NCBI GenBank assembly: GCA_029883265.1
Contig: JAOUJM010000001.1
Span: forward strand, 10,511 to 74,510
From: Gammaproteobacteria bacterium
GTDB lineage: Bacteria > Pseudomonadota > Gammaproteobacteria > S012-40
Direction: 5' to 3'
DNA length: 64,000 nt
A model generated the notes under the pieces. The model was not told the origin of the DNA. It was given only the letters and a program-made list of their open reading frames with translations, and did not search any database. Positions 4,071-24,800 of this stretch are shown one piece after another. Both the position numbers and the translations under genes were made by a program. Within the stretch, counting starts at the first letter, position 1. Each line of letters begins with the position of its first letter.

Positions 4071-4361
4071 CTACTTGGCTTCTATGAAAGCTCTTTCTGC
4101 TTTTGCTATGTCCTCAGCTAACTTCGAATCAAATGGCCAACTATCTGCTATCGCATGTGTAAGGCCTAAGTTCCGCTGACTCTTTTCTGGTAAAGAACCC
4201 GAATTCAAAGTGTCTAACATCTTCTGAAGCTTCTGTTTAAAAGCATCCTTCTGTACTTTTGGTACGTTGGCTAGTTTAGGATCAGGAGAGCTAGATAGCT
4301 CTCGATCCAATGCCTCCATAGCAGATTTGACCAGCTTAGTTGCCTGCTCTATTGAACTCAT
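4071..4361 (-). CDS. Putative immunity protein for toxin E
   Basis: 96-aa ORF directly 3' of toxin E. Its stop TAG (4073..4071) abuts the module D junction. Confidence 0.5.
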   Translation of the reverse strand: MSSIEQATKLVKSAMEALDRELSSSPDPKLANVPKVQKDAFKQKLQKMLDTLNSGSLPEKSQRNLGLTHAIADSWPFDSKLAEDIAKAERAFIEAK

Positions 4362-4799
4362 TTATGGCTCCAATAAGTCGTTTGTATCTAATATATATTT
4401 CTGAATTTGACTGCCTTCAACACCTACTCCCATTGAAGATGCACGCCCTTCAAGAATTTTAGTATTAGGCCTAATTTGGAATTGCTTCATGTAGGTCATC
4501 TGATTCCATTCTGGTTTTAATGCTAGATTTTGTCTTGAAGCAGGGAAAGTTTCGAACAGGTAACGACCTTTCTCCCACGCTTTCACATTATCGTAATACC
4601 TGATACCAAATTCGCTATCTGTTGCTTGTCTCAAGTTGAGAGTCTTAATATCAAAACTCTCTAGAACTTGCTTCCTGATATCTCGTGGCACTCCAGCATT
4701 TTGTAAGAACTGCGATGCTTCCTTAACCCCTGCGTATCTTTGACCAAGTACGCCCTCTAATTCAGCCGTAGAGATGTTGTCGGCTTTGTTTGGAACTAC
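4362..4799 (-). CDS. Orphan toxin C-terminal domain E (begins VVPNKADNISTAELEGVLGQRYAGVKE...)
   Basis: Track ORF 4362..4691 extends in frame to GTA GTT CCA AAC AAA at 4799. The first junction codon shares one nucleotide with the TAG stop of immunity F (TAGTAGTTCCA). Confidence 0.55.
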   Translation of the reverse strand, partial: VVPNKADNISTAELEGVLGQRYAGVKEASQFLQNAGVPRDIRKQVLESFDIKTLNLRQATDSEFGIRYYDNVKAWEKGRYLFETFPASRQNLALKPEWNQMTYMKQFQIRPNTKILEGRASSMGVGVEGSQIQKYILDTNDLLEP

Positions 4800-5191
4800 T
4801 AATTAGGTAACTGCTTTACTAATGCATCGAAGTTCTGCTTAAGTTTTATCGCAATTTCACTGAGCTGTTCCTCGTCGCTCATAGGCGTGTCAGGAACTCC
4901 AGCTAGTAACTCCTCTATCGATAACTGCTCCCCGTCAGATATCAATGAGTTCAAATATGACCACTCGGCATTATCTAATTCTTCATTGCTTGCTTCGATA
5001 GTGCCGATCAAACAATTTACTTCCCCATCCCTTTCGGATTGATAAAAACATAACTTACAGAGTGGGGAAGAATAAAAAACTAGGGATTTATTACCACCAT
5101 CCAAATCTAAAGTTTCGTCTAGTTTAAAACCCTTGGCAGAAAAGAAATCTTCCAAGGCCCTACGCACTTTTCTCTGAAAATCGATAGTCAT
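4799..5191 (-). CDS. Putative immunity protein for toxin F
   Basis: 130-aa ORF. Its start overlaps the toxin F stop (5188..5191). Confidence 0.5.
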   Translation of the reverse strand: MTIDFQRKVRRALEDFFSAKGFKLDETLDLDGGNKSLVFYSSPLCKLCFYQSERDGEVNCLIGTIEASNEELDNAEWSYLNSLISDGEQLSIEELLAGVPDTPMSDEEQLSEIAIKLKQNFDALVKQLPN

Positions 5192-5664
5192 TGTTTGTCA
5201 GCCTTGATCCAAGAATTACCATCTCTCACATAACCATAATTCTTGGCGTTGGTTTCAAGATATTTAATCTCCATCGCCGTGAAGCTTTTTGGTCTATTAG
5301 TTAAAACTTCTCTGATTGTTTCGCCATGGAGATCAATTCGACCAACGCCACGCTCTAATTGACCATGAAGGAATTGTTCATTAACAGACCAAGCTTTTGC
5401 TCTACCTTCTGTCTTGCTTAAACCATTGGTGAGTTTTGAGAAAAAGCTGGAGTCCGTCTCAAACCATACTCCACCATTAGCCTTTGCCTCACCGATATAC
5501 CCACCATTGTCAACCCACTTGCCCAAAACTACACGATTTGAATTCTGATTAACATGGGTGGACATTTCTGCTATTTGTCGAGCATACTGATCCGCATTAG
5601 TGCCCGATGTATTGCGTAATCCATTAATCGCATCATTCAGAGAGAGCTTGTTTGGAACAAATAA
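5188..5664 (-). CDS. Orphan toxin C-terminal domain F (begins LFVPNKLSLNDAINGLRNTSGTNADQYARQIAEMSTHVNQNS...)
   Basis: Track ORF 5188..5565 extends in frame to the FVPNK junction (TTTGGAAC at 5651-5658). A stop lies just upstream. Confidence 0.55.
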   Translation of the reverse strand, partial: LFVPNKLSLNDAINGLRNTSGTNADQYARQIAEMSTHVNQNSNRVVLGKWVDNGGYIGEAKANGGVWFETDSSFFSKLTNGLSKTEGRAKAWSVNEQFLHGQLERGVGRIDLHGETIREVLTNRPKSFTAMEIKYLETNAKNYGYVRDGNSWIKADKQ

Positions 5665-5675
5665 TCAGCTAGTAG

Positions 5676-6059
5676 TTAGCTGTAGTACTTATACAAATCA
5701 GAATCTTCCCACTCTTTCTCATAAACCGCAAGAACCCTGCTTAATGCATCTCGAACTCTTAAATCTGAGCTATTCGACATTTCCTGCAGAACTGATAGCT
5801 TAATTTCGTCCCATTTTAGTTCTCTCATGCAAAACTCAAGAATTTCAATAGGCCATTTTTCTTCTTTTACTATCGTTTTAAAATTCTCGACAAGTTCTTC
5901 ACGACTATTAGAATTGGACTGTACAAACTGGAGTATTTGTAACAAATAGGGCTCAAGTTCATCCGTGCCGTCAGTTTTTTGCCATGCAGACTCTGCGGCT
6001 TGTACTAAGGTCCAGAATTCATCTGCAACTTTCATGATCATTAATCCTTCTTTACCCAT
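5676..6059 (-). CDS. Putative immunity protein for toxin G
   Basis: 127-aa ORF. The internal Met at 6041 would give the typical TGATG stop/start overlap with toxin G, so the true start may be 6041. Confidence 0.5.
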   Translation of the reverse strand: MGKEGLMIMKVADEFWTLVQAAESAWQKTDGTDELEPYLLQILQFVQSNSNSREELVENFKTIVKEEKWPIEILEFCMRELKWDEIKLSVLQEMSNSSDLRVRDALSRVLAVYEKEWEDSDLYKYYS

Positions 6060-6846
6060 TCACCGCCACGAGGAAGTGTTGAATCAAACCTCCAGACTTT
6101 CTCTATATATTTGTTCGTGGTATCAAATCCTAGTGCTTGAAACGCTTTCTCAGTTGCCTTTTGTGCAGATTGCCCATGGGGCTGATAATGACCCGAAGTG
6201 TTGTCGATATATTTCAACTCGCCATTTACAGCTTTGACCTCGCCGGCAGCAATTACAGGACGATTGTTGGCAATATCAATATGACCGCCACCAGGCGCTT
6301 TCCTGGATTGTTTACCAAGCAGCAAAGTGCCATCCTCGAGTACTACATAATTGGCTTTTTGGTTAATCTCAGTAAATCTATTCGGATTTATAAGGTTAGC
6401 CGGACCAACGCTATCTTCAGGAAATTTATTCGTGAACACTGAAGTTTTGTTGTCTGGAACAAATCCGTCTACCTTGCGTAGTTTACCCAACATAGAGGAC
6501 CCAGCCAAGGTTAAAGCAAAATCAACTGGAGATTCTGGGATCAACATGTCGAACAATTGCGCACCTACAAACGCTCCAGGACTTAAATTCTTGAATGCAA
6601 AATGCTCCATTGAGTTTTTAACTTGTGATTTACCACTCCTCATATCGCTGGTAAATTTGACAGAATTTTCATAGATATTTCTAAGTATTGGATCTTCTAT
6701 CAAGTCACTGAGCTTATTAATATCTTGAATATCAGTGTCAACTCGCCATATTTTTGCACCGTTTTCATCAGAGCCAATACTATCTGAAACATCAGCTCTA
6801 ACAGGACCATGTTCATTTTTCGCAAGCTGTAATCCGTCCAGTGATA
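6041..6846 (-). CDS. Orphan module G: ~130-aa pre-junction RHS-tail fragment (…VDFALTLAGSSMLGKLRKVDGF) plus VPDNK junction plus CT domain
   Basis: Track ORF 6041..6868. Its first 7 codons (MRSLGRL) are encoded inside the IS66 left end (6847-6868). The internal junction is GTCTGGAAC at 6452-6460. Confidence 0.5.
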
Positions 6847-6930
6847 GTAAGCGTCCCAAACTCCGCACCTTCCCAGTTCGCTTAAGATCCGTTAGCCTGT
6901 TTCTGTGTAAATTACCGGCAGGAGCAAGCC

Positions 6931-7290
6931 ATGAACGATCTCACTCAATCATCCATCAAAAACATTCGCACGGATAAACGCAGCAAGGGCCCTGAGTATT
7001 GGCAGGCGCATATAGAGGCCATGAAACAAAGTGGTCTATCAAAAACCGCGTACTGTAAACAAAACAATCTTTCGACGGTGACATTTTTTAAATGGGAAAA
7101 GAAACTCGCCAAGGCCTCGGCTTTGTTTGTACCTGCGAAGTTGGAGATGCCGGTGTCTCCAACCTCATCCAACGAGATGATTCGGATTGATCTACCCAAT
7201 GGCTGTGTGATTTCCTTGCCGGTATCGTGCTCACCCGCAGAGGGTTTACGTTGGATTGAGACCTTGATGCGTGTTTCATGCTCAAGCTAG
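6931..7290 (+). CDS. tnpA: IS66-family TnpA (orf1, HTH)
   Basis: 119 aa. It is the first of three overlapping same-strand ORFs after a GTAAGCG-type IR. Its paralogue at 18817 is about 85% identical. Confidence 0.7.
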   Translation: MNDLTQSSIKNIRTDKRSKGPEYWQAHIEAMKQSGLSKTAYCKQNNLSTVTFFKWEKKLAKASALFVPAKLEMPVSPTSSNEMIRIDLPNGCVISLPVSCSPAEGLRWIETLMRVSCSS

Positions 7291-7634
7291 ATCAAGAGAT
7301 TCAGATTTACTTCGCGATTAACCCGATCAACATGCTGAAAAGCTTTGACGGTTTAGCAGCCTTGGTGGTGGATGTGATTCAACAAAATCCCCTATCAGGG
7401 CATTTGTTTGTGTTTCGTAATCGAGCCGCTGATAAAATTAAACTACTGATCTGGGATCGCAATGGCTTTACCATCTACTATAAAAGACTCGAACGCGGTC
7501 GCTTTAAGTTTCCTGAGTTGGATGACTGCACTCATCTTTCGATCACTCGTCAAGAACTGGATTTATTGTTTGATGGTATTGACTTCACTCAACTCAAACG
7601 CCTACCCACACTTCACTATAAATCAGTGATTTGA
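7278..7634 (+). CDS. tnpB: IS66-family TnpB (orf2)
   Basis: 118 aa with the motifs IYFAINPINMLKSFDGL…LFVFRNRAADKIKLLIWDRNGF…YKRLE characteristic of IS66 Orf2. It overlaps the tnpA end. Confidence 0.8.
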   Translation: MLKLDQEIQIYFAINPINMLKSFDGLAALVVDVIQQNPLSGHLFVFRNRAADKIKLLIWDRNGFTIYYKRLERGRFKFPELDDCTHLSITRQELDLLFDGIDFTQLKRLPTLHYKSVI

Positions 7635-7646
7635 TCCGTCTGATAC

Positions 7647-9185
7647 TTGCATTACAATAGTGCCATGCAAGGACGCACGAAAACACATTATTCCTACTCT
7701 GAACTCAAAGCTTTAGTCGATGAACTTCAAAAAGAAGTGCAGCTGCTTCGAGAGAAAAATCGTTTGTTACTGCATCGTCAGTTTGCCGCGAAGTCCGAAC
7801 AGACTACCGATGATCAGTTGTCCTTGTTTGATGCGGATACTTCATCGTCCGAAGTAAATCAAAACAATGAAAAAAACAACAACATCGTCGTACTGGCACA
7901 TCATCGCAAGAAACGACAACGACTGACGTTTTCTGATGACCTACCCAAACGTAGAGTTGAGATTGATCTGGATGAACACGATAAGACCTGCGATTGTTGC
8001 GAAGCACCACTGACGCATATTGGTGAAGACATCACTCGAAAGATTGAATTTATCCCAGCGAAAGTCCAAGTCGTCGAATACGCTCGATTAAAATATGCGT
8101 GTAAATCCTGTGAAGACACCATTAAACGCCCACCCTTACCGAACTTTATCTTACCAAAAAGTTTCGCCACACCAAGTTTACTCGCGCATTTGATTGTGAG
8201 TAAGTTTGGTGATGGCTTACCTTTGTATCGCATTCAACAACAACTGGCCCGTCAAGGTGTGCATTTACCGCGTTCCACCATGAGTACACTGTTACTCAAA
8301 GCCGCTGATTTACTCGATCCGGTTTATAAATTAATGATCAAGCAAGTATTGTCCGGCCCGCGTATTTGGACAGATGACACGATTCTTCCCAAACAAAACG
8401 ATGATCCGAGTCGAAACAAAATCATTCAATCCAGATTATGGGTGTATATTGGTGGACCTCTTAAAGATCCACCCTTGGTCATTTTCGATTACACCAGCAC
8501 TCGATCCTCGAAATGGCCGAAGGACTTATTGTCTGATTACCAAGGCTACAAACATGCCGATGGTTATGGCGGCTATAAATCGTTGCATGATACAGGTAAA
8601 ATTCACTATGTGGCGTGCTGGAGTCATGCGCGGCGAAAGTTTTTTGAGGCCTCATTACTCACCGAGCAAACCGGTAAAGCCAAGACCATGATTAAATACA
8701 TCAAACTGCTTTATAAGATTGAAACCGCTTGTGAAAAATATGGTAATAAAAAACGTAAACGGTTTCGACGAAGATATGCCACACCCATACTCAACACCAT
8801 CAAAGCCTATGCCGATCAACATGCGCCGCATATTCCACCCAAAACCAGTTTGGGTAAAGCGTTTACTTATTTGCTTAATCAATGGCATGGACTGGTTCGT
8901 TATCTCGATGCCGGTCACCTAACCATTGACAATAACCTGGCCGAACGACACATCCGACCCATTGCCGTGGTTCGAAAAAGTTTTCTGTTTGTCGGCTCGG
9001 ATCGCGGTGGTCGTGCGGCTGCGATTTATTATTCGGTGTTGGGGTCGTGTAAAAGTTTGAGGGTGAATCCTTATAAGTATTTGATGGATTTGTTTGAGCG
9101 GTTGCCAAATTTTGAATCAAAATTGGAGTTAAGCAATTTGATGCTAACTCGCTGGACTAAACAAGATGACGAACGAAAAATCTGA
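7647..9185 (+). CDS. tnpC: IS66-family transposase TnpC (orf3)
   Basis: 512 aa. It has an N-terminal leucine-zipper-like coiled coil, a CxxC…CxxC zinc-finger region (KTCDCC…CKSCED) and a DDE-type core. It is about 88% identical to the 19554..21044 copy. Confidence 0.85.
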   Translation: MHYNSAMQGRTKTHYSYSELKALVDELQKEVQLLREKNRLLLHRQFAAKSEQTTDDQLSLFDADTSSSEVNQNNEKNNNIVVLAHHRKKRQRLTFSDDLPKRRVEIDLDEHDKTCDCCEAPLTHIGEDITRKIEFIPAKVQVVEYARLKYACKSCEDTIKRPPLPNFILPKSFATPSLLAHLIVSKFGDGLPLYRIQQQLARQGVHLPRSTMSTLLLKAADLLDPVYKLMIKQVLSGPRIWTDDTILPKQNDDPSRNKIIQSRLWVYIGGPLKDPPLVIFDYTSTRSSKWPKDLLSDYQGYKHADGYGGYKSLHDTGKIHYVACWSHARRKFFEASLLTEQTGKAKTMIKYIKLLYKIETACEKYGNKKRKRFRRRYATPILNTIKAYADQHAPHIPPKTSLGKAFTYLLNQWHGLVRYLDAGHLTIDNNLAERHIRPIAVVRKSFLFVGSDRGGRAAAIYYSVLGSCKSLRVNPYKYLMDLFERLPNFESKLELSNLMLTRWTKQDDERKI

Positions 9186-9193
9186 ACCGGCTT

Positions 9194-9748
9194 TCAATTA
9201 CTAAGTCGAAGCACTTTACCCGAGGATACTTTGAAATGACTAGTAACGATTTTTTGTTCGCCGTTTATGATATAAATATAGTTTGCAATGATAGTTTTAT
9301 TTTCTATTTTTATGTCCCTAAGATTGCTAACTATGGCGTCACCATCTAGCAACCTAAAGCTGCTATCACGAAATTGAAAAATTAGTAAATTATAAAGATT
9401 TCCGCCACTATTGTAATACACGAGCAATTCTGGAGTTGGTTCTTCATCCATGTTCTCTTGTGCAAAATCAACGGAATGACCCTCTAGCATATAAATTATC
9501 TTAGGATAGCCATTTTCAATTGTTAACAAATAAGTTTCGTTTGTGGGTAGGCAATCATCAGCATCATCAATGTAGAATATTTTTAAATCACGGATTTCCA
9601 TGCTCTTCTTTGAATGAATATGAAACTCCATTTTGTTTGAGCCAGACTCAAATTTGTTGCACTTTTCCACAGATGAAAAACAATTAGTAATTCCGGCAAT
9701 ACTTATTAAAATCACGTATAAAGCATGTCTTATATGAGCCATTTTCAC
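9194..9748 (-). CDS. Putative immunity protein for toxin H, with N-terminal signal peptide (periplasmic)
   Basis: 184 aa. Hydrophobic leader MKMAHIRHALYVILISIAGITNCFSS. Its start overlaps the toxin H stop (9745..9748). Its stop lies 8 bp from the tnpC stop, in convergent orientation. Confidence 0.55.
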   Translation of the reverse strand: MKMAHIRHALYVILISIAGITNCFSSVEKCNKFESGSNKMEFHIHSKKSMEIRDLKIFYIDDADDCLPTNETYLLTIENGYPKIIYMLEGHSVDFAQENMDEEPTPELLVYYNSGGNLYNLLIFQFRDSSFRLLDGDAIVSNLRDIKIENKTIIANYIYIINGEQKIVTSHFKVSSGKVLRLSN

Positions 9749-10509
9749 GGTTTACCTTGTGTCTTAAGATAGTTTTCAATAAATTGCACGGTGGTTCCAT
9801 GCCCCTTAGTCGTATTGTAATAGACTTTCCAGTCCTGCGCATAAGAGTGAGCACCAGGTGATTCAATGAAAGATAGTTGACTTCTATATCTCCAATATTG
9901 TAAACCAGCCATCGCTGCAGCATATTTATCATTATTTCGGAGTTCAGAATGCAAATCACCACCATTTGTGAAGCTCATTACTAACTTTGCTATTTTGGGT
10001 TTATATGCAAGGACATTTGCCCATATATCATCATGCGTATTCGGTTCCATTTGAAACAAACCTTTTGCAGGGCCATTACTAAATTGATCCCTGTATTTAA
10101 GCGAACTTTCTTGCGCAGCAGTACCAACTAGAACTTCTTGGAATTCGGTTCGGTATTTTGAAAAAGTTTTGTCTATTTTCCCGAGCTCATCAATGGCAGG
10201 TTTAATCGAGTTAGTAAGCAAAGCATCTGCTTTCTTCTTGAAATGAAGATTATTATTAAACGTATATTTCTCAAGTTCATCCAAGTCAATTTTATACCCT
10301 GATGAATCGAACAAGGACCCCTCCCCAAACGTTCCATCTTGAGGCGCTAAGCTAAGAAGATACTTCGCTACTTCAGTATTGTCACCCCAATCAACGTCGG
10401 GCAACTCGTTTTTATCAAGAACCGCGTTTTGGCCCACACTGGCCAGCATGTTTGAACCAACTGGGTTATTTTTCCTAGGGGCAGAGTTTTGGACGCTTAC
10501 TGGAACTAC
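9745..10509 (-). CDS. Toxin H: lytic transglycosylase (SLT/lysozyme-like) C-terminal domain entered through the IS66 IRR (…LFVVP-VSVQNSAP-RKNNPVGSNMLASVGQ…)
   Basis: Track ORF 9745..10449 extends in frame through 10478-10500, which is translated as VSVQNSAP, to GTA GTT CCA at 10509-10501. The motif LVGTAAQESSLKYRDQFSNGPAKGLFQMEP matches the SLT catalytic signature (E-S … GLMQ-like). Confidence 0.6.
   Translation of the reverse strand, partial: VVPVSVQNSAPRKNNPVGSNMLASVGQNAVLDKNELPDVDWGDNTEVAKYLLSLAPQDGTFGEGSLFDSSGYKIDLDELEKYTFNNNLHFKKKADALLTNSIKPAIDELGKIDKTFSKYRTEFQEVLVGTAAQESSLKYRDQFSNGPAKGLFQMEPNTHDDIWANVLAYKPKIAKLVMSFTNGGDLHSELRNNDKYAAAMAGLQYWRYRSQLSFIESPGAHSYAQDWKVYYNTTKGHGTTVQFIENYLKTQGKP
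10478..10500 (+). repeat. IS66-type right inverted-repeat-like sequence (GGGGCAGAGTTTTGGACGCTTAC), copy 1
   Basis: 20/23 complementary to the IRL at 6847. Identical to 22817-22839. Confidence 0.6.
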
Positions 10510-11168
10510 AAATAGTTAGATTTTTCCAATTCCCACCATTCCAAAAATAAACTCCAGTCATACCAGCTAACAACGGTACCATCGTAAGGCTCGCTTATCC
10601 TAGTACTACAAAATTGCTTACCAGCCAAAGAACTTATTTTTTCTAATGCTAAATCTCTAAGCTCGTAAAAATAATCGCTGTTCATCCCTTTCTCTGCAGC
10701 ATAATCATCTTGCCTAAAATGTATCAAAGGAGATATTTCTCCTTTTTTTGCATAAGTATAATAATGATACAAAGCTATCCTTCTATACCCCAAATCATCT
10801 GAAATAAGATAATCCGCCATTATTTCTCTATAATTAGGATAGTTATCCTTTAACCAAACAAATAACTCTAAAGCTTGATAACAAACATATTTACTTTCAT
10901 GCTTTAAAAGTTTTTCCAATCTACCCACTAAATATTTAAAAAAATCAGTACCGAATGTACCAGGCTTATTCTTTTCTAGAAGCGCGTTTAGAAAAAGAAA
11001 CCCTGTTGATATATCAGCTTGGTCATCAGACGATAAACAATTATGTACCCCCTGTATTACGACTGAGTTTATACCCAGCTTTTGAATATCCGAATGGGTA
11101 AGAGTACTAGTATCCACACCAGTAGCATCTGATAGCAATTTTCTCAGTTCCTCTGATGGGTTCATCAT
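10506..11168 (-). CDS. Putative immunity protein for toxin I
   Basis: 220-aa ORF. Its start overlaps the toxin I stop (11165..11168). Confidence 0.5.
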   Translation of the reverse strand: MMNPSEELRKLLSDATGVDTSTLTHSDIQKLGINSVVIQGVHNCLSSDDQADISTGFLFLNALLEKNKPGTFGTDFFKYLVGRLEKLLKHESKYVCYQALELFVWLKDNYPNYREIMADYLISDDLGYRRIALYHYYTYAKKGEISPLIHFRQDDYAAEKGMNSDYFYELRDLALEKISSLAGKQFCSTRISEPYDGTVVSWYDWSLFLEWWELEKSNYL

Positions 11169-11596
11169 GGTCTAGTTATCCATTTAAGCTCATTGACAAA
11201 TAATGATTCAGTATCAATTTGTTTCACAAAATCAGAATGAAGTTCTTTCGGAATATATGTTTGAGTACCTGATCCACCTTTCACTCCTCCCTGCCAAGCT
11301 TGAAGCCCAGGCTTGATCTCAAACACTCCAAGTTGCTCGGCATTATTTCCCCATGCTTTGATATTAAACAACTCTTCTGCATCCATTGAGTTCAATGGCT
11401 TCATATTACTAAAGAATTCTCCAGTACCGCGTTGACCTTGTCTCTGAGCTTGGAAATACAGACCTGGCTTAACTTCCCCAAACCCTTTAGTTGAAAAAGA
11501 ATCAAGCTTAGATGCACTTATATTTCCAGGTGCAATCAGGCTCGGTGATGGACCTGACTCAGGTATTACAACTGAAGATTTATTGTTTGGAACTAC
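11165..11596 (-). CDS. Orphan toxin C-terminal domain I (begins VVPNNKSSVVIPESGPSPSLIAPGNISASKLDSFSTKGFGEV...)
   Basis: Track ORF 11165..11404 extends in frame to GTA GTT CCA AAC at 11596. Confidence 0.55.
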   Translation of the reverse strand, partial: VVPNNKSSVVIPESGPSPSLIAPGNISASKLDSFSTKGFGEVKPGLYFQAQRQGQRGTGEFFSNMKPLNSMDAEELFNIKAWGNNAEQLGVFEIKPGLQAWQGGVKGGSGTQTYIPKELHSDFVKQIDTESLFVNELKWITRP

Positions 11597-12021
11597 CTTT
11601 TTATAGCAGTTCCTTTAACAATTATATCCTCACCTACTTTCTCAATTGAATCTATAGAGTTAATTACATAGTTTGCAACGTCATTATCTTCATCTAAAGC
11701 AATATCAAGAATATCGAACTTATGGTAAGCATAAAGATATTCAAATAAAGATGCGCCTTCGATATCTATGAATTCAGATAATAACGGATAATCAGTAGCC
11801 CCCGGATATGGGGGCTCAAAATCACCAGCAATCTCGTCATCTTCTCTAAGTTCTTCAACACCATCATTGTACAAAGGTGTGAGCTTTTCTATAAAAACTC
11901 CTTTAGCAAATTTAATTTCGTAGCGGAAAGTCTCAAAGCCATCCCCTTTTCCGAAGCTAAATTGGCTAAACGTTAACGCATTGGAATCAATGTTCTTACC
12001 ATCTACACTATATAAAATCAT
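11593..12021 (-). CDS. Putative immunity protein for toxin J
   Basis: 142-aa ORF immediately 3' of toxin J. Confidence 0.5.
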   Translation of the reverse strand: MILYSVDGKNIDSNALTFSQFSFGKGDGFETFRYEIKFAKGVFIEKLTPLYNDGVEELREDDEIAGDFEPPYPGATDYPLLSEFIDIEGASLFEYLYAYHKFDILDIALDEDNDVANYVINSIDSIEKVGEDIIVKGTAIKR

Positions 12022-12023
12022 CT

Positions 12024-12539
12024 TTAACTTCCCGGAGGTAGAATAATAATTTTGCCATCAGGCGTTATCGTAATTGATCCAGATGGAATATATGGTTGAC
12101 CAGCTTTCAAGTCTCCACCAGCTCTAGTCCCAGATCTTTGGAAAAATTGCTCTGGCGTTGTCATTGTTTCTATAGTTTTTGTACTTTTACCAGGAACAAT
12201 AGTAAGTTCTTCCATTTTTAAGAAATTTGGATTATCAGCTGCGGCTTTATTGACGTTTTTAATTATTCTTTGAGCTTGCTTTTCAGATAAGCTACCGAAA
12301 CCGACATCAATATCACTACCTTTGCCGAAATCGCCTCTTATTCGGCTACCACCAAATACTACTGTTGAATTTCTTTTTAGCCCCTGCTCTAAAATTAACG
12401 TAGCTTGCTCAGTTGTCAAATCAGGTACATGCTTTGATAAAAATGCAGACTGTTCTGCAATGCCTGATGTGGTTAATGTAGTTTGCTCAGGATATGCATT
12501 AAATACAGATTTATCTGTCCAGCGTGTGTTTGGAACTAC
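12024..12539 (-). CDS. Orphan toxin J with nucleotidyltransferase-fold motif (begins VVPNTRWTDKSVFNAYPEQ...)
   Basis: Track ORF 12024..12419 extends to the junction at 12539. VVFGGSRIRGDFGKGSDIDVGF fits the G-S…D-x-D signature of pol-beta-superfamily nucleotidyltransferases. Confidence 0.5.
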   Translation of the reverse strand, partial: VVPNTRWTDKSVFNAYPEQTTLTTSGIAEQSAFLSKHVPDLTTEQATLILEQGLKRNSTVVFGGSRIRGDFGKGSDIDVGFGSLSEKQAQRIIKNVNKAAADNPNFLKMEELTIVPGKSTKTIETMTTPEQFFQRSGTRAGGDLKAGQPYIPSGSITITPDGKIIILPPGS

Positions 12540-12985
12540 TTATCTGTATAATACCATTCTAGAAAATCGAAAAAACTTTTGTATATCGGTTGCAACATCC
12601 TCTTGGAGAGTTTTTCCTCTTCTCCCCAGCTCACATCAAATACTTCATCGCTAACTTTGCTATAAAAATAGCTCCCCTCACCTTCAATAGACGAAATACG
12701 TAAATAATCTTCCATTCCTGGCAGTGAGCTATATTCACCTGATTCAGCATCTTCAATAATTTTTTCCAAAGTGCTAATTTCGCTACCGTTACCCACTACT
12801 GGGATAGCCACCAAAGTATAAAAATCAATAAAGGCAGAGTCAGCATTTCTTATTCCCAACTCTTTCTCAAAATAATTCTTGTCATCTTGCGTAACTATAA
12901 ATTTTCCATCTTGTGCAGAAAAAACGCCGTCATAACACCACTTCAGGTTAGACTTATAGAAGTTTGAGACAATGTCCGGTAACAA
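12536..12985 (-). CDS. Putative immunity protein for toxin K
   Basis: 149-aa ORF. Its TAG stop overlaps the first junction codon of toxin J (GTAG). Confidence 0.5.
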   Translation of the reverse strand: MLPDIVSNFYKSNLKWCYDGVFSAQDGKFIVTQDDKNYFEKELGIRNADSAFIDFYTLVAIPVVGNGSEISTLEKIIEDAESGEYSSLPGMEDYLRISSIEGEGSYFYSKVSDEVFDVSWGEEEKLSKRMLQPIYKSFFDFLEWYYTDK

Positions 12986-12986
12986 T

Positions 12987-13544
12987 TTAACGACCTCCGC
13001 TATTCGTTATCTCGATTAGTCGCTGTTGCCAATAGATTTTTCTGTCAATATCAAAAGCTGATCTATCAACAGGATATGTTGGATGTTGACTTTGAGTTGG
13101 CCCAGATCCCGCGCCATTCATTTCACGCCCTCTATTGGTTTTGTATGGGTGCAATGCCTCACCTCCTTGGCCTGTTTTTGACCGATGCGTTAAATCACTT
13201 AGTTCAAACAGAGGACCGTTCGCATTTTGGCGACTAAGATGCAATTCAATGCGAGACTGTACACCATTCTTCAGAACATAAGGAGCATTTCCCACTTCCA
13301 ATAGCTCCCTATTTGTAGTTGTATAGGTCCTTTTGGTTTTTGGATTGGTAATTTTTACCACTAAATCGGGATCAATTTCTTGTTGAAAGACTTTGTATTT
13401 AATCCCTGTCCCATTTACTGGGGCTACCCACACAGCTTCGGTTTTAAAATAACTAGGATTCTTGGCGTTTTTCGCCCGTAGCGCAACAAAGTCTATCTTA
13501 TTCGGTTCTACTGCTCCCTCAAGTTCATATTTGTTTGGAACTAC
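12987..13544 (-). CDS. Orphan toxin C-terminal domain K (begins VVPNKYELEGAVEPNKIDFVALRAKNAKNPSYFKTEAVWVAPVNG...)
   Basis: Track ORF 12987..13433 extends in frame to the junction at 13544. Confidence 0.55.
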   Translation of the reverse strand, partial: VVPNKYELEGAVEPNKIDFVALRAKNAKNPSYFKTEAVWVAPVNGTGIKYKVFQQEIDPDLVVKITNPKTKRTYTTTNRELLEVGNAPYVLKNGVQSRIELHLSRQNANGPLFELSDLTHRSKTGQGGEALHPYKTNRGREMNGAGSGPTQSQHPTYPVDRSAFDIDRKIYWQQRLIEITNSGGR

Positions 13545-17563: not shown

Positions 17564-17853
17564 ATACTAAATCCGCTTTTCCAATCACTTTTAGTAGTAG
17601 GATCCGACCTCATTTCTTCTAAGAAGAACTCACACGCTGAGCTTTCATCCTCAAAACACTCTTTGCCAGTCTGCAATCCTCTCTCACTATAATAAACACA
17701 CCACCGGCCATTTTCACAACGCAAGCACAACGCCTCGTCCTTTTGTTCCTCCTCCAATGAGTAAGAGCTAGGATTAAATTTCTCCTCACTCAACTTTCTT
17801 TGAAGATCATCTTTATTCATGCAATATCCCTCATCATTTTGTAACGCGCTCAA
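17560..17853 (-). CDS. Putative immunity protein for toxin P
   Basis: 97-aa Cys-rich ORF that overlaps the toxin P 3' end. Confidence 0.45.
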   Translation of the reverse strand: MSALQNDEGYCMNKDDLQRKLSEEKFNPSSYSLEEEQKDEALCLRCENGRWCVYYSERGLQTGKECFEDESSACEFFLEEMRSDPTTKSDWKSGFSM

Positions 17854-18732
17854 GATATTGGTTTGCTGGATTCAAGAGCTCCTTTACTGATTTTGGCAAC
17901 TCGTATTGGGTACCATATCCAGGCATATCAAAAGCAGGTGCAGCTGGGCCAATGCGTGTATCCGGAATTTCTTGGAGAACGCGATACACATTCAAGTTAC
18001 TCACATCTGTGCCGGGACGAAGGGATAATGTTTCTGGAGTTGTTCCTAAGGGGCTTGCGAATGTACCGCGTTCATTCCCGAGACGGCCTATTAGCTGTCC
18101 AGGTTGCAATGAGCCAATCTCATCAGCACCATAAACAAAACCTTTATTCTTCGGCCAATCCCAGAACACATTTTCTGCACCATACTTGCTGGTCAAATAT
18201 TCATTCCATTGAGCGCCTGAAACTGCTCCAGTCTTGTTTGGAACACGATCACCGCCTTTATATTTTAATATACCGCCAGCAATAAAACCATATGTTAAAC
18301 CACCCAATAGCTCTGGATTCTCCCTGTTCTGCCACAAGTTCCTCAGACTTTGGACCTTTCTATCTGAAAATTCGGTACTAGTAGGAAAACCCAGCTTATC
18401 TAACTTAAAGAAACTATTAAAATTTAAAGAGAGGTCATTAAACTCTTCCCAGATATTTTTTCCTATATCTAGCAAAACCTCTAAAGTCTCATTTGTCAAT
18501 CTGTCACCAAGATCTTTATGAGCATTTAGGGTTCCTTTACTGAATCTCAATGCGTAATCACCCACATCTCCGTTTTGTTTCTGCTGGTTACTCCGGCCCA
18601 AAACAACCCCATTAATCTGATCAAGTTGCTGCATTGCCTCTTCTAAATTTTGTTGACTCTCAGAAACCTCTCCAACCCCCTCCTCCTTACTATGTCCCGC
18701 CAACGTCAATGGTAAATCCACTTCCTGGCCAT
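17834..18732 (-). CDS. Module P: displaced original C-terminus of the giant rhs gene (EVDLPLTLAGHSKEEG…KYKGGDR-VPNKT-GAVSGAQWNEY…LERVTK)
   Basis: Track ORF 17834..18817. The first 28 codons are IS66-encoded (18817-18733). Immediately outside the IS left end the frame continues from the TSD (HGQ) into rhs-like sequence. That sequence joins seamlessly to …TYNGYGQ of the giant ORF once the IS66 element and one TSD copy are removed. Confidence 0.65.
18725..18732 (+). repeat. 8-bp target-site duplication CTGGCCAT (left copy) of IS66 element 2
   Basis: Identical octamer at 22840-22847, directly outside the other end. IS66-family elements make 8-bp TSDs. Confidence 0.85.
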
Positions 18733-18755
18733 GTAAGCGTCCTAAACTCCGCACC
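18733..18755 (+). repeat. IS66 left terminal inverted repeat (copy 2)
   Basis: GTAAGCGTCCTAAACTCCGCACC. The canonical IS66-family end starts GTAAGCG. Confidence 0.75.
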
Positions 18756-18816
18756 TTCCCAGTCAGTTTAAGATCCGTTAGCCTGCTGCTGTGTAAATTA
18801 CCAACAGGAGCAGGCA

Positions 18817-19173
18817 ATGAACGATCTCACTCAACCGTCCATCAAAAACATTCGCACGGATAAACGCAGCAAAGGCCCTGAGTATTGGCAGGCGCATATG
18901 GATGCGTTAAAGCAAAGTGGTATGACTAAAACCGGTTATTGCATGCATCACGGACTTTCTACGGCGACGTTTTTTAAGTGGGAGAAGAAACTGGCCAAGG
19001 CCTCGGCTTTGTTTGTTCCGGCTAAGTTGGAGACAGTGCCGGTGTATCCAGCCTCATCCAATGATCTGATTCGCATTGATCTGCCCAATGGTTGTGTGAT
19101 TTCCTTGCCAGTGTCGTGTTCACCTACTGAGGGTTTACGTTGGATCGAGACCTTGATGCGTGCTTCATGCTGA
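18817..19173 (+). CDS. tnpA: IS66-family TnpA (orf1)
   Basis: 118 aa. Paralogue of 6931..7290. Confidence 0.7.
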   Translation: MNDLTQPSIKNIRTDKRSKGPEYWQAHMDALKQSGMTKTGYCMHHGLSTATFFKWEKKLAKASALFVPAKLETVPVYPASSNDLIRIDLPNGCVISLPVSCSPTEGLRWIETLMRASC

Positions 19174-19523
19174 AGCTAGATCGTGAGATTCAGATTTACT
19201 TTGCGATTAATCCGATCAATATGTTAAAAAGCTTTGATGGGTTATCCGCTTTAGTGGTGGATGTGATCGAACAAAACCCCCTATCGGGGCATTTGTTTGT
19301 GTTTCGTAATCGAGCCACTGATAAGATTAAATTGCTGATCTGGGATCGCAATGGTTTTACCATTTATTACAAAAGACTCGAACGTGGTCGCTTTAAGTTT
19401 CCTGAGCTAGATGACTGCACCCACTTGTCTATCACCCGCCAAGAGTTGGATTTGTTATTTGACGGGATTGATTTTACTAAGCTCAAACGATTACCCGCAC
19501 TGCATTACACATCCGTGACTTGA
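19140..19523 (+). CDS. tnpB: IS66-family TnpB (orf2); true start probably the internal MLKLDREIQIY at ~19167
   Basis: Same motifs as 7278..7634. Confidence 0.8.
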   Translation: MDRDLDACFMLKLDREIQIYFAINPINMLKSFDGLSALVVDVIEQNPLSGHLFVFRNRATDKIKLLIWDRNGFTIYYKRLERGRFKFPELDDCTHLSITRQELDLLFDGIDFTKLKRLPALHYTSVT

Positions 19524-19553
19524 TTCTGGATTAACCTGCATTACAATAGCGCC

Positions 19554-21044
19554 ATGCAGGCAAAGTCTCAAACACGCTATTCTTATTCTGAACTCGAAGC
19601 ACTTGTGGTTGAACTTCAAAAAGAAGTGAACCTGCTTCGAGAGAAAAACCGGTTGTTGTTGCATCGACAGTTTGCTGCTAAATCCGAACAGATGACGGAC
19701 GATCAGTTGTCTTTATTTAATGATGATTCGGTAACAGCAGAATCAACTCCTACAAAAATGAAGAACGATAACATCGTCGTACTCGCCTATCATCGCAAAA
19801 AACGGCAACGACTGACGTTTTCTGATGACCTACCTAAACGTAGAGTTGAGATTGATCTGGATGAACACGACAAGACCTGTGATTGTTGCAATACTCAACT
19901 CACGCAAATCGGTGAAGACATTACTCGAAAGATTGAATTTATCCCAGCGAAAGTCCAAGTCGTCGAATACGCTCGATTAAAATATGCGTGTAAATCCTGT
20001 GAAGACACCATTAAACGCCCACCCTTACCGAACTTTATCTTACCAAAAAGTTTCGCCACACCAAGTTTACTCGCGCATTTGATTGTGAGTAAGTTTGGTG
20101 ATGGCTTACCGTTGTATCGCATTCAACAACAACTAGCGCGACAAGGCGTGCATTTACCGCGTTCGACTATGAGCACCTTATTACTCAAAGCAGCTGATTT
20201 GCTCGTACCAATTTATAAATTAATGATCAAGCAAGTATTGTCCGGCCCGCGTATTTGGACGGATGACACGATTCTACCCAAACAAAATGATGATCCAAAT
20301 CGAAAGAAGATTATTCAATCTCGATTATGGGTATATATCGGAGGTCCACTCAAAGATCCACCCTTGGTGATTTTCGATTACACCAGCAATCGATCTTCGA
20401 AATGGCCGAAGGACTTATTAGCCCATTACCAAGGTTATAAGCATGCTGACGGGTATGGTGGATATAAATCGTTGCATGTAACCGGTAGCATTCACTATGT
20501 GGCTTGCTGGAGTCACGCACGGCGAAAGTTTTTTGAGGCTTCACAACTGACCGAACAAAGCGGTAAAGCCAAGACCATGATCAAATACATCAAACAGCTT
20601 TATCGGATTGAAACGGCTTGTGAGAAGTATGGCAACAAAAAACGTAAACGGTTTCGACGAAGATATGCCACACCCATACTCAACACCATTAAAGCCTATG
20701 CCGAGCAACATGCGCCGCTTATTCCACCCAAAACCAGTTTGGGTAAAGCGTTTACCTATTTACTCAATCAATGGCATGGCTTAGTTCGTTATCTCGATGC
20801 CGGTCACCTAACCATCGACAATAACCTGGCAGAACAACACATCCGACCCATCGCCGTTGGAAGAAAAAGTTTTTTGTTTGTCGGCTCCGATCGCGGCGGT
20901 CGTGCGGCTGCGATTTATTATTCGCTGTTGGCGTCGTGTAACAGTTTGGGGGTGAATCCTTATGCGTATTTGGTGGCGGTGTTTGAGCGTTTGCCGGAGT
21001 GTCTAAGTGACCAGGATTTTCAGAAGCTGATGCTTAAACAATAA
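19554..21044 (+). CDS. tnpC: IS66-family transposase TnpC (orf3)
   Basis: 496 aa. Coiled-coil N-terminus, zinc-finger region and DDE core. About 88% identical to copy 1 but diverges at the extreme C-terminus. Confidence 0.85.
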   Translation: MQAKSQTRYSYSELEALVVELQKEVNLLREKNRLLLHRQFAAKSEQMTDDQLSLFNDDSVTAESTPTKMKNDNIVVLAYHRKKRQRLTFSDDLPKRRVEIDLDEHDKTCDCCNTQLTQIGEDITRKIEFIPAKVQVVEYARLKYACKSCEDTIKRPPLPNFILPKSFATPSLLAHLIVSKFGDGLPLYRIQQQLARQGVHLPRSTMSTLLLKAADLLVPIYKLMIKQVLSGPRIWTDDTILPKQNDDPNRKKIIQSRLWVYIGGPLKDPPLVIFDYTSNRSSKWPKDLLAHYQGYKHADGYGGYKSLHVTGSIHYVACWSHARRKFFEASQLTEQSGKAKTMIKYIKQLYRIETACEKYGNKKRKRFRRRYATPILNTIKAYAEQHAPLIPPKTSLGKAFTYLLNQWHGLVRYLDAGHLTIDNNLAEQHIRPIAVGRKSFLFVGSDRGGRAAAIYYSLLASCNSLGVNPYAYLVAVFERLPECLSDQDFQKLMLKQ

Positions 21045-21094
21045 GTGAAAATGTAAACCATTATTGTTCACCTATTACCACACGGCCAAACATC

Positions 21095-21823
21095 TCATTT
21101 ACGAGGTTCAGGTATCTCCACACCTCGCTGCTTTAACGCGGCTAAGAGTTTTTCATACCAAATCTGTTGACTGTCGGGAACATTTACCATTACAGCAATT
21201 TGTGCCAATCTCTCTAATTCTACAGTAGTGCCCTTTTCTAAATAAAAAAGCCCTTTATCATAACGTCCCCAGACGGCAACAACGTGATCGGCTATAGTTC
21301 CGCCTTGGTTGTCAACACCATTTAAATCGGCACCATTATCCAGTAAAAAATCAATGCGTTTCCAATTGCGTCCATTAGCTATGCGTTGTAATAATGGCAT
21401 ACCATTCCAGCAAGTGATGTTGGGGTCACCGCCATGGCGTAACAATATTTTTAGATAGTCGATGTCGTCGGCTTGTGCAGCAAGTTCCATAGCTGAAAAT
21501 TCAATATCGGTTTTGTAATTCGGATTCGCACCTAGCTGTAATAGTTTTTCCAAACCTTTTTTGGCTTTCGCAGCAATCAGCCACATTAAGGGTGAGAGGC
21601 CTTCGGATCCGACCGCATTCACATTGGCACCTGCTTTTACTAATCGATCGACTTCGGCAAAATCCTCGTCAATGGCGGCATAGATCAATTGTGAATCCAA
21701 CGGCTTTGAAAACGATTGTTTCGCGGTTAAGCCACCCAGTTTTAATTCACCACAGGCGCTACACATGAAACTCATGCCGAATAAAAGAAATAAGTATTTT
21801 CGGAGTTTTATATTTTGAATCAT
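21095..21823 (-). CDS. Ankyrin-repeat lipoprotein, the cognate immunity protein for the lipase-like toxin domain (IS66 cargo)
   Basis: 242 aa with a signal/lipobox-like N-terminus (LFGMSFMCSACG). It has at least four ankyrin repeats (GANVNAVGSEGLSPLMWL…, GANPNYK…, GGDPNIT…, GADLNGV…). An RBS AAGGTGA precedes the ATG. It lies immediately 3' of the toxin domain. Confidence 0.7.
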   Translation of the reverse strand: MIQNIKLRKYLFLLFGMSFMCSACGELKLGGLTAKQSFSKPLDSQLIYAAIDEDFAEVDRLVKAGANVNAVGSEGLSPLMWLIAAKAKKGLEKLLQLGANPNYKTDIEFSAMELAAQADDIDYLKILLRHGGDPNITCWNGMPLLQRIANGRNWKRIDFLLDNGADLNGVDNQGGTIADHVVAVWGRYDKGLFYLEKGTTVELERLAQIAVMVNVPDSQQIWYEKLLAALKQRGVEIPEPRK

Positions 21824-21846
21824 GCTTCACCTTAATTGCAGATCAA

Positions 21847-24800
21847 TTATTTAAACGCGTTGATAAAATATTGCATATCGTGCAAATCCACAGGGTCCAA
21901 ATAACTTTGCCATGGCAAGGGCTGTTTCGCTTCATTTACGGCCGGTACGGCAATACGAGTGCCTGCGGCTTCTGGCATTTGTCCGGGGCCAAAACGATGC
22001 CAGCCAATGTCCCTACCATAAGATACATCATTAAGTGCCATAACAGCCGCGAGTAAATTTTTTGGGACTGTACCCCATTGGTTGAGGACGGAGTCCACCA
22101 CTGGACTAGCCTGGAGTGTGCTCAATATTTCACCCGGCGTATAGAATGCGTAAACATTTTTCTTTAAGTGATTCCGATCCATTCCATAGCGCTCAATTGT
22201 ACCATCACTGAGTCCTGCCGCGTTAAAGGTAACCGCACTGGATTTCAACCTGCCAGCTTGTGCCGAAGCAATGCCGCCACCGAGGGAGTGACCGGTAAAG
22301 GTTAGTGGTGATGAGCCTAACGCTATTTGAAGATCAATTGCAAGATTGATCCCAAATTCATATTGGGTCGAATTGAAATCGGATCCTTGAGCAATACTTG
22401 CTACTGCATCTTTAACCGCTTCATGCCGGCCCAATTTCGTATCCGTTCCTCGATTGGCGAATATAAATTCGCTTGTGCGATAATTAAAATAGAGTGCGCC
22501 TTGGTAGCCACTCTTCTTATCTACAAAATTTTCAGGTTTCATATCCAGGACATCAATAAAATCCCTACCCATGCGGTAAATATCCTCAGTGACTTTCTTT
22601 GGTTCCTTTCCGGTGTATTCTTGATAAACATCGTCAGATACCATAGCGTTTTCATACCAATCAAGGCTTCCACTAAAGTCCAGTCTGATTGGAGCGGCAC
22701 TAGCAAGCTGCGAGTTATATAGCGTTCCGTTTTCATCAACTAGCTGTCCGTTCTTGAATGTGAGTATCGGTTTGGTTTCAACGGCATCGGATGATTGTCT
22801 ATAAGGAATTTTGCCTGGGGCAGAGTTTTGGACGCTTACCTGGCCATACCCATTATACGTTTTACCGCCATTACGAATAAGATTGCGACCTGGCTGGATT
22901 CCCCCAAATAGCGGCAACTCACCCAAAGCAGATTTCCAAGCATCCTCACCAGACACGCCTTTGCGAATAGACTTGGTGTAGTGTTTCTTAATCGCCTGTC
23001 TTTGTCGGTGGTCGTTTATTTTCAACTCATCAAGTTTGTTATCAAACTTTTTGGTCGACTGCTCAGCACTAATATATCCCGACGCAGCACTACTTAGTGC
23101 CTCAACAGCAACCGTCCGCCAGTCCGGCCGGTAGTCTTTCAGAGTCATGGAGTTAACGGCTATGCGGCCAACTCCAGTTAACGCACCACGTATCGCATCG
23201 CCTGCAACACCCGCGAAACCCCATCCATCAACTTTCCCAACGTTGCTTGGTAATGAAGATGTGACTCCACCCACTAATGCGCCAACCGCTACATTCGCGA
23301 ACAGATTTCCTGCTTGGCTATTGTATTTTTTACGCTGCTCAGTTGACTCCATGGCCATCGATAAGCCAGTCGATATAAGTGCTCGTCCCGCACCTTGTAG
23401 TGCACCCTTAACAACCCCTCCTCCTGTCTGATTCAATCCAGGTATTTGTGATATGATCGCGGCGATTGTCATTGATTTAACAATTTCTTCCTCGTCAATT
23501 TCATCGATGTAACCAACATTCTTCATGTATTTCTGTATGGCATACGAGGTCATTCCGGCAGCAATAATCGCCCCTTGCGGACCAAACACTATAAAAGCAG
23601 CAATAGATATGACAACAGAAGCAACATTCATCCAAAATATTTCAGACTTCGAGGGTTGATTCCTTGCAGGCATGCTTGGGTCCGTACTTCCAATTATCTC
23701 TCCCGGACTATAAGGTTTGAAGGTATCGGCATTGTTATGAATGTTTGTGACAACATTCGGAATGATTATGGATATTCCAGGTGTTAAATCAATATTGGTG
23801 ATATTGTTTGCGTTTGCAATCACATACCAAAGACTAGCATCTCCCCATACTTTACCTGCAATCGTTTCCAAAGTGTCACCTTGCACAACGAGGTATTCAC
23901 TGGCTGTATTCGCAGGATAGTTAGCACTAATGGCTTGATAATTTTGATCAAAGTCTGCTGAAATAACTCGATTCTTCCCTCTTTTTTCGTTATCTGCAAT
24001 CTCCTTGTTTGATAGTCGCGACTGGGCAAGTATTTGTGTATAGTCGGTTTCACCGGCACCTCGGTTGGATACTTCACCAATACCCCGTCCATTAAGATAG
24101 AAATAGCGGTTTACATCGTAATTTGTATTATCGATTTCATTACGCATAATGATTCGGCCGTCGGCATCAACCGTAAACTCAACTCGGCGCTCATATTTGG
24201 TGCCATGTAGTGGTGAGTTGGAATCATCCATTCTCATCAAGTGTCCATTTTGGTCATAATAAAGGTGAGAATACCCGTCAACAAAACCACGTGAATTTAC
24301 ATCCGACCTACCAACACTCTTTTTTGCAGAATCCCAATAGCTATAGAAATAGGAATTCCTGAAATTCTTTTGTTCCTCAATGCTCTTTACTTGATATGAG
24401 ACATTCTTTTCAGCTAGATCTAAACGATCTATTTCACGATAGGTGTAATCGTTATGAATTGTTGACTGCTCTTGCAAATATAGAAATTGATCCTCAGAAT
24501 TTTCCACTCTTTTACGATACTCAATACGAGAGATACGACTATCCAGATCATAGCTATAGTCGTATTGTTGTACAGACTGGGGTGGAATTGTGGTAACAAC
24601 AGTTTCTATATCTGGGTCATATAAATGAGAGGAGCTCGTTCGACCTAGCGCATCTAGCAAGCGCCGAGACACTAAATTTTTGTCTTCAACATTATCGACT
24701 ATTTTTCCGTGTTCAACAGTTTCTAAAATACCATTTTTTGTATATCCATATCGTTCGATCATAGTCGTATTCGCGCGAATATAGTTAACGCCAATTCGCT

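Follow-up and report, generated by a model that had tools for sequence, protein, structure and literature searches.

IS66, IS679 and ISAba24, which Han et al. in 2001 and Gourbeyre et al. in 2010 are said to have described, belong to the IS66 family of insertion sequences (ISs), whose members ordinarily measure about 2.5 kb and typically duplicate 8 bp of their target. ISs that carry passenger genes were reportedly brought together by Siguier, Gagnevin and Chandler in 2009 under the concept of the transporter IS (tIS), and engineered fusion transposons of the TnphoA and Tn5-lac type are said to go back to Manoil and Beckwith in 1985. In the prevailing view, polymorphic toxin loci exchange their toxic tips through homologous recombination that draws on orphan cassettes, and Poole et al. 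in 2011 are said to have described Rhs-type loci with orphan toxin–immunity cassettes. Here we analyse 64,000 nucleotides of contig JAOUJM010000001.1 from an uncultured gammaproteobacterium (assembly GCA_029883265.1; this whole stretch is called the window). It carries an IS66-type element of 3654 bp, copy 1 (6847–10500), made of an IS66 left end, intact tnpA, tnpB and tnpC genes and 1.3 kb of antisense cargo, and, 12 kb away, a sister element, copy 2. We consider that copy 1 is probably an intact IS66 carrying a polymorphic-toxin cassette, and that copy 2 is the outcome of a proposed mechanism in which a resident delivery protein would be read through the end of the IS into a new toxin.

Rhs/CdiA-type polymorphic toxin loci with orphan toxin–immunity cassettes have been surveyed by Zhang et al. 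(2012; PMC3482391), where replacement is put down to recombination and transposases appear only in an unrelated context. An 8-bp duplication is reported for ISDge4 (PMC12898284), transposases, IS66 included, are mentioned in a general statement as lying near some toxin loci (10.1101/2025.10.01.679605), and a transposon has been described that carries a whole contact-dependent inhibition (CDI) locus (PMC6350997). In the searchable literature we found no report of an IS66, or of any IS, with a toxin domain read through its end.

The elements described here resemble the IS66 family in their tnpA–tnpB–tnpC order, in a DDE TnpC with a zf-IS66 domain, in ends of about 23 nt beginning GTAAGCG and, for copy 2, in the 8-bp duplication. 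They measure 3.65–5.6 kb, unlike the usual IS66, because 1.3–3.3 kb of passenger genes lie between tnpC and the right inverted repeat (IRR). Like a tIS, an element of this kind is a single IS with its own inverted repeats that moves non-transposition genes as one unit; unlike in a tIS, one of the passengers is a protein domain lacking both promoter and start, the frame of which opens inside the terminal repeat, and the expression of this domain depends on the landing site. With Rhs/CdiA loci they share a giant repeat delivery protein, a variable C-terminal toxin and an adjacent immunity gene, together with a downstream array of start-less orphans marked by a junction motif (here VVPNK) and an old toxin displaced downstream. 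Whereas the accepted route at such loci is homologous recombination at the conserved junction, copy 2 arrived by transposition, marked by a duplication, with an IS end as the junction. The closest known functional analogue may be the engineered TnphoA type, in which a start-less reporter frame is open through the transposon end and in-frame insertion yields a hybrid protein, although TnphoA and Tn5-lac are laboratory constructs with IS50 ends, whereas here the IS66 is natural and a toxin stands in for the reporter, accompanied by an immunity gene.

Results

Copy 1 and its ends

A preliminary description of this DNA, made from the sequence alone, had reported the same 23-nt right end at 10478–10500 and 22817–22839, 20/23 complementary to the left inverted repeat (IRL), and had placed it 1.3 kb past tnpC with no inverted repeat directly after that gene. 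Our searches agree with it: GGGGCAGAGTTTTGGACGCTTAC occurs exactly at both places and its reverse complement, with three mismatches, at 6847–6869 and 18733–18755, so that a three-mismatch search of the window returns exactly four ends, against 0.00 expected from 100 shuffles, and no solo IS end elsewhere in the window. The tnpC stop lying at 9185, the right end of copy 1 is 1315 bp beyond it. Between the two, the best IRR-like match reaches 12–14/23, which is chance level, and neither an IRR nor a target duplication was found right after the tnpC stop, so that on this point the description stands.

Copy 1 possesses the gene content of the IS66 family, with tnpB, a DDE tnpC bearing IS66-specific domains and a small tnpA, as well as terminal inverted repeats in the 20–30 bp range that start with GTAAGCG. 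It lacks the compact layout of about 2.4–2.7 kb with the IRR right after tnpC, and, as the description had also noticed, it lacks the 8-bp target-site duplication that copy 2 has, since its flanks, CAGTGATA and TGGAACTA, differ. The tnpC ORF (open reading frame) is open from a TTG at 7647, and its product is 88% identical to TnpC of copy 2, 65% identical to protein P0003, and shares about 41% identity with the nearest plasmid IS66 transposase that carries an annotation; tnpA had no match in Pfam. We regard copy 1 as very likely a cargo-carrying IS66 element, and it may still be able to move.

The structure is not an assembly artefact, because independent contigs reproduce it. A contig of another metagenome-assembled genome from NCBI (L001; GCA_029880205.1, Gammaproteobacteria bacterium) is 100% identical to window positions 624–8906 and an ENA contig (L015) to 15742–8081. 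Two short contigs, L012 and L016, match 10561–9568 and 10495–9076, again at 100%, and include the right junction and the joint between cargo and tnpC. Jointly, the four cover both junctions of copy 1 and its tnpC–cargo joint.

The cargo of copy 1

Two minus-strand ORFs occupy the 1.3 kb between the tnpC stop and the IRR, as had been described: a toxin ORF and an ORF with a signal peptide. On that strand the IRR translates as GTA AGC GTC CAA AAC TCT GCC CCT, or VSVQNSAP, followed by RKNNPVGSNM..., and the first ATG of the toxin frame, at 10449, is codon 18, 17 codons from the IRR. Upstream, the frame passes through the IRR and on to LFVVP, where a TAA five codons outside the IRR closes it (..GKI, stop, LFVVP, then VSVQ..). 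The claim that the frame runs out exactly as in copy 2 therefore goes too far, and copy 1 by itself would not persuade: given this TAA, the copy 1 toxin, unlike that of copy 2, is fused to nothing. Judged from its closed frame, it would at present be an orphan without expression. Fusion of a toxin to the C-terminus of a delivery protein, which is characteristic of polymorphic toxin cassettes, is absent from copy 1 and found in copy 2, within a 6384-aa RHS-repeat ORF.

The ATG of the second ORF lies 2 nt past the toxin stop and its own stop 8 bp from that of tnpC. Pfam, PHROGs and a PDB sequence search gave it no significant family match. Its signal-like N-terminus fits a toxin acting in the periplasm, and we take the 182-aa ORF to be probably a tightly coupled immunity gene with a periplasmic product. 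A promoter and terminator scan around the cargo returned promoters at or below shuffle level and nothing usable.

Copy 2 transposed together with its cargo

Copy 1 and copy 2 share 87% identity between the IRL and a point about 50–80 bp before the tnpC stop; beyond it they are unrelated, and only in the last 33 bp do they match again. According to the base-by-base comparison that the description had recommended, the cargo extends from the tnpC stop to a boundary about 10 bp inward of the IRR. The 6384-codon ORF enters copy 2 in the GTA-AGC frame and stops at the lipase stop. When positions 18733–22847 are deleted in silico (4115 bp, that is copy 2 plus one repeat), the giant ORF joins 299 codons ending in a TNT domain and an ORF of 6350 codons with zero internal stops is restored; removal of 4107 bp, copy 2 alone, would leave the frame unrestored. 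The perfect 8-bp duplication and the ORF restored on excision mean that the IS and the cargo of copy 2 moved as one unit. Copy 2 transposed with its cargo into the gene and swapped, in frame, a TNT end for a lipase end. Homologues of the copy 2 toxin align across 96% of its 330 aa, starting at the IRR, and the first Met stands at about residue 64. The lipase domain, having no Met before that residue, can be made only as an upstream fusion. The features of both copies are listed in Table 1.

Table 1. Coordinates of the two elements, their cargo and their surroundings in the window
Feature	Position	Strand	Remarks
Copy 1 IRL, GTAAGCGTCCCAAACTCCGCACC	6847..6869	+	20/23 complementary to 10478-10500; 1 nt different from copy 2 IRL
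Copy 1 IRR, GGGGCAGAGTTTTGGACGCTTAC	10478..10500	+	Identical to 22817-22839; minus-strand codons V-S-V-Q-N-S-A-P
tnpA, 119 aa	6931..7290	+	Intact ORF; 48-49% identical to L002/L003 tnpA by tblastn
tnpB, 118 aa	7278..7634	+	PF05717 TnpB_IS66, E 9.4e-34
tnpC, DDE transposase, 506 aa from ATG	7665..9185	+	PF03050 E 2e-84; PF13005, PF13007, PF13817 (zf-IS66, LZ/leucine-zipper, IS66_C)
Cargo gene 1, putative secreted immunity protein, 182 aa from ATG (182/184 aa)	9194-9742/9748	-	N-terminus MAHIRHALYVILISIAGITNC signal-peptide-like, hydrophobic, as read from the sequence
Cargo gene 2, toxin reading frame	9745..10500	-	Open from outermost IRR base (VSVQNSAPRKNN...); 234-aa ORF 9745-10449; lysozyme-like domain at residues 92-247
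Left flank of copy 1, 268-codon frame	6041..6846	-	About 130 aa pre-junction, FVPDNK (6463), then unassigned C-terminal domain
Right flank of copy 1	10501..10518	-	TAA, then L-F-V-V-P, the start of the orphan-cassette junction motif, cut after VVP; junction also in contigs L012, L015
Copy 2, sister IS66, 4107 bp	18733..22839	+	Ankyrin immunity and lipase-like toxin, toxin in frame with giant ORF
Copy 2 putative ankyrin immunity protein	21095-21823	-	Pfam Ank matches; signal-like N-terminus
Copy 2 lipase-like toxin	21847-22839	-	GHSLGG lipase-type domain; weak Lipase_3 in Pfam; PF26363 homologues
Target-site duplication CTGGCCAT	18725..18732 (left), 22840-22847 (right)	.	Perfect 8-bp direct repeat bounding copy 2
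Displaced original C-terminus of giant protein	17834..18732	-	Ends in TNT toxin domain, PF14021 E 2e-20
Giant RHS-repeat protein, 6384 aa	21847..41001	-	RHS_repeat E 2.6e-75, 1.9e-39; DUF6531, LysM; last 330 codons inside copy 2

The toxin of copy 1

The preliminary description had read the copy 1 toxin as a lytic transglycosylase, and here the motifs and the predicted fold speak for it, while no curated family does. In 21 homologues, nearly all small (about 150–220 aa), the motifs GTAAQES, G-P-A-x-G-x-x-Q-M-E-P and Y-Y-N-T are invariant, and across a set of 22 the motifs GTAAQES, GLFQMEP and YYNT are invariant or nearly so. These supply the catalytic Glu in an E-S motif and the GLxQ and AYN-type motifs of lytic transglycosylases and GH23 lysozyme-like enzymes, and, with an all-helical fold, they liken the protein to GH23/family 1 lytic transglycosylases and goose-type lysozymes such as Slt70, MltE and phiKZ gp144. 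An AlphaFold (AF2) model has a predicted local distance difference test (pLDDT) score of 80, exceeding 90 across the domain. The PDB entries that Foldseek ranks nearest to this model are an endolysin from a phage, a GH23 chitinase, phiKZ gp144, MltE, MltF and Slt70, with probabilities of up to 0.99, and the top 36 hits are almost all lysozyme-like enzymes, although the matches are weak (E 0.017–1, template modelling (TM) scores 0.3–0.5). Two points count against the assignment: unlike members of that family, the protein has no match to the Pfam SLT model and is left unnamed by Pfam and PDB sequence searches, and every Foldseek E-value is 0.017 or higher. In PHROGs its nearest sequence family, phrog_3108, carries no annotation. 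On the motifs and the weak fold match, a toxin of the lytic-transglycosylase type with a secreted immunity protein is a reasonable reading.

Related elements in other assemblies

A metagenome scan for the right end and look-ups of TnpC homologues, of the sort that the description had proposed, recovered a third element, present in an ENA assembly (L002) and in JGI sample 3300022221 (L003), whose TnpC is 65% identical. After tnpC it carries, on the transposase strand, a signal-peptidase-like gene (L003:8379–9107, Peptidase_S26 E 4e-30) and two small ORFs, then an antisense SUKH-like ORF (weak in Pfam, E 0.008), an antisense 290-aa ORF and an IRR that is 22/23 identical. The toxin-side frame is again GTA-AGC (VSVQNSAR...). 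The toxin-outward, same-frame layout recurs with three unrelated cargos. Its right flank is a type I-F CRISPR (clustered regularly interspaced short palindromic repeats) array and not an rhs gene, which marks the 23-mer as an IS end rather than as rhs coding sequence.

In the same JGI sample, another contig (L004) holds 77 bp of the copy 2 lipase cargo and the right end, followed by the CRISPR flank seen in L003, although the spacers next to it differ. Different cargos consequently lie at the same nucleotide beside the array (L003:11658–11680 and L004:78–99, compared with window 22741–22839), and the presence of two cargos at one site in two strains points to cargo swapping in place or to repeated insertion there. 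Of the right-end 23-mer, 22 nt are invariant across copy 1, copy 2, L003 and L004. The left end of L003 (6076–6098) is only 14/23 identical to the copy 1 IRL and 13/23 complementary to its own right end (11658–11680), so that in L003 conservation is far stronger at the right end (22/23) than at the left end or in the transposase (TnpC 65%). Either the cargo and the right end pass jointly from one related IS66 backbone to another, it would seem, or some extra constraint acts on the right end.

More distant TnpC relatives (L009–L011, 46–50% identical) appear to belong to ordinary IS66 elements without such cargo. In L010 a candidate pair of 28-nt inverted repeats, 75% complementary, sets the right end at the tnpC stop, and in L009 no clear ends were found. 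In L010/L011 (495–6480, 7077–9537), with a TnpC 46% identical and no toxin cargo before the candidate right end, the IS66 lies just downstream of a 1350-aa ORF and of an ORF with a TEN_YD-shell (Rhs-type) match, on the same strand, and so provides a second instance of an IS66 with an Rhs neighbour. A further relative, L013 (TnpC 60%), has same-strand downstream ORFs, among them a DUF6973 ORF (L013:2234–3469) 1.4 kb downstream of tnpC, and was set aside as uninformative because there is no IRR within 3.5 kb.

The metagenome scan for the IRR gave six loci, one of which was found again in a viral scan. In L005–L008 and L014 the 19-mer lies in unrelated sequence with no IS66 genes, and we treated these as chance matches. 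A TnpC peptide-pattern scan and an exact IRR scan of 185,579 species genomes returned nothing, which makes the lineage a rare one, and exact-protein look-ups of both TnpC proteins and of P0001 gave no match.

Discussion

A proposed mechanism for toxin replacement by an IS

The mechanism that we propose rests on an antisense cassette, lying between the tnpC stop and the right end, that would combine a start-less toxin domain with a coupled immunity gene. The IRR would have two roles, that of an end for the transposase and that of a linker of eight codons (VSVQNSAP), the toxin frame beginning at its last base. If the element inserted in frame and suitably oriented within the 3' portion of a delivery-protein gene, translation of the host protein would continue across the IRR into the incoming toxin, the former toxin end would be pushed downstream as an orphan, and the immunity gene would come in with the same event. 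Cargo and right end may moreover be exchanged as a module between related IS66 backbones, by recombination. For this mechanism in full, our confidence lies between an even balance and a fair likelihood. The open right end may exist for the very purpose of making toxin fusions, the Rhs–toxin fusion protein may be made, delivered and toxic, and the small cargo ORFs may confer immunity. The preliminary description had argued for a dedicated cargo system from the two copies of the window, an idea now strengthened by the duplication and ORF restoration of copy 2, by a third element with unrelated cargo and by the two cargos at one site.

If this mechanism operates, it offers a one-step horizontal route that brings in a toxin and its immunity gene and splices the toxin onto a resident delivery protein, and polymorphic toxins would diversify by transposition, in a way distinct from homologous recombination. 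How new cassettes enter genomes is poorly understood, and such an IS would supply one route. It would also explain the frequent transposases near toxin loci, and the transposon itself would gain a selective drive. The observations extend the range of cargo seen in IS66 elements, whose mechanism is poorly known, and provide a natural counterpart of the TnphoA-type transposons. Tentatively, and with slightly less than even confidence, we extend the proposal to a lineage of IS66 elements that would act as a natural toxin-fusion transposon, with swappable start-less toxins and their immunity and with the IRR as linker, rearming giant delivery proteins in one step and spreading by killing element-free cells.

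Several observations weigh against the fusion mechanism and against copy 1 as an example of it. The frame of copy 1 is shut five codons beyond the IRR and its first ATG comes only 17 codons in, so that openness through this end is weak evidence when taken alone. The absence of a target duplication weakens the case that copy 1 transposed by itself as a 3.65-kb unit. The copy 2 fusion skips the native VVPNK-type junction, which lies about 160 aa downstream, and this bypass weakens the case for delivery of the chimeric toxin. In L003 the toxin frame has one in-frame TAA 35 codons in, there is no duplication and the IRL is degenerate. Finally, the architecture is known only in one lineage, from a few uncultured gammaproteobacterial metagenome samples.

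Some of these points would be accommodated if the elements were genuine cargo-carrying IS66 copies whose open right end is functionless, the toxin and immunity genes being passenger or addiction-type genes. As read from its sequence, every IS66 end of the GTAAGCG type leaves two of the three frames open whatever the cargo; an insertion that is in frame and correctly oriented has a 1/6 chance, so that the copy 2 fusion could be a 1-in-6 accident; the toxins of copy 1 and L003 are fused to nothing, and copy 2 inserted upstream of the native junction motif. We nevertheless find this explanation unlikely, for the toxin domain of copy 2 starts at the IRR with no start codon of its own, and in 3/3 cargos it is the toxin, not the immunity gene, that stands beside the IRR, outward-facing and in the same frame. 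Toxin domains with neither a start codon nor a secretion signal have no obvious use unless fused, and the right end shows much stronger conservation than the transposase and the left end do.

It is more improbable still that copy 1 was built in place, from an IS66 minus its own right end and an orphan cassette of the array, with the IRR as the solo end of another IS copy, so that the 3.65-kb unit never transposed. The missing duplication, the two flanks from different contexts and the position of copy 1 amid an array full of orphan cassettes are what such a history would leave. Copy 2, however, has the same layout together with a perfect duplication and a restorable ORF, the L003 element repeats that layout outside any rhs array, and the window holds no other solo IS end. 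In copy 1 itself the immunity stop is 8 bp from the tnpC stop, with no residual IS or array sequence between them, and the toxin opens directly with the IRR and not with VVPNK, unlike every array cassette.

The notion that the 23-mer is conserved rhs or toxin coding sequence, a pre-toxin linker resembling an IS66 end by chance, is hardly credible and effectively refuted, for although it is translated within the giant ORF and precedes a toxin domain at both window sites, it has the family GTAAGCG terminus, is 20/23 complementary to the start of both IS66 copies with 0 matches expected by chance, bounds a unit with an 8-bp duplication, ends related IS66 elements beside a CRISPR array in its other informative occurrences, is absent from the 185,579 species genomes, and encodes a product (VSVQN) found in 0/226 retrieved toxin and transposase homologues.

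Flanks and history of copy 1

As the preliminary description had recognized, the right flank of copy 1 is a VVP junction, reading stop-LFVVP: the right end sits exactly inside one "stop, then (L)VVPNK" junction, after VVP. Later recombination at this junction, which the description had suggested, is plausible. The protein encoded by the left flank had no Pfam match and no detectable similarity to the giant ORF; its layout is that of the displaced TNT end left of copy 2, and the flank resembles an rhs-type 3' end that has been displaced. We propose that an ancestor of copy 1 would have landed, like copy 2, within the 3' portion of an rhs-type gene, and that the DNA on its right would later have been lost or exchanged, either in an adjacent deletion mediated by the IS or when two IS copies recombined. 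The target duplication disappears in both cases, and exchange of the right flank by one of them is the most likely history. Copy 1 would then be the same kind of element as copy 2, in a parked state beside an orphan junction.

The giant gene, its neighbours and the orphan-cassette array

The giant protein has two separate blocks of RHS repeats and about 1200 residues without an assigned domain before the toxin, and its DPxG motifs occur only at residues 2657 and 3331. Upstream of its gene lies a 424-aa ORF (44815–46089, minus strand) with DUF6973 and a weak wnt-family match, and the neighbouring genes (window 47000–64000) are flagellar: FliP, FliN, FlgE-like, FliI and a sigma factor. In the window we saw no genes for type VI secretion.

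At least 11 start-less orphan cassettes lie on the minus strand of window positions 1–18250, each opening with (L)VVPNK or a close variant after a stop. The junction motifs start at 18247, 17563, 14676, 13544, 12539, 11596, 6463, 5661, 4799, 1699 and 1108, and the plus-strand DNA of the motif is TTTGTTTGGAACTAC. At the 10506 junction the preceding ORF stops at the TAG within GTAGTT. At only about 15 bp, the motif is short by the standards of ordinary homologous recombination. Within the array a 149-bp stretch is doubled at 97% identity (957–1105 and 1548–1696). Its two copies cover the beginnings of a pair of adjacent orphan cassettes (VVPDKT and VVPNKT followed by LNHQASSGVILQTE...), and they suggest a recent tandem duplication inside the array.

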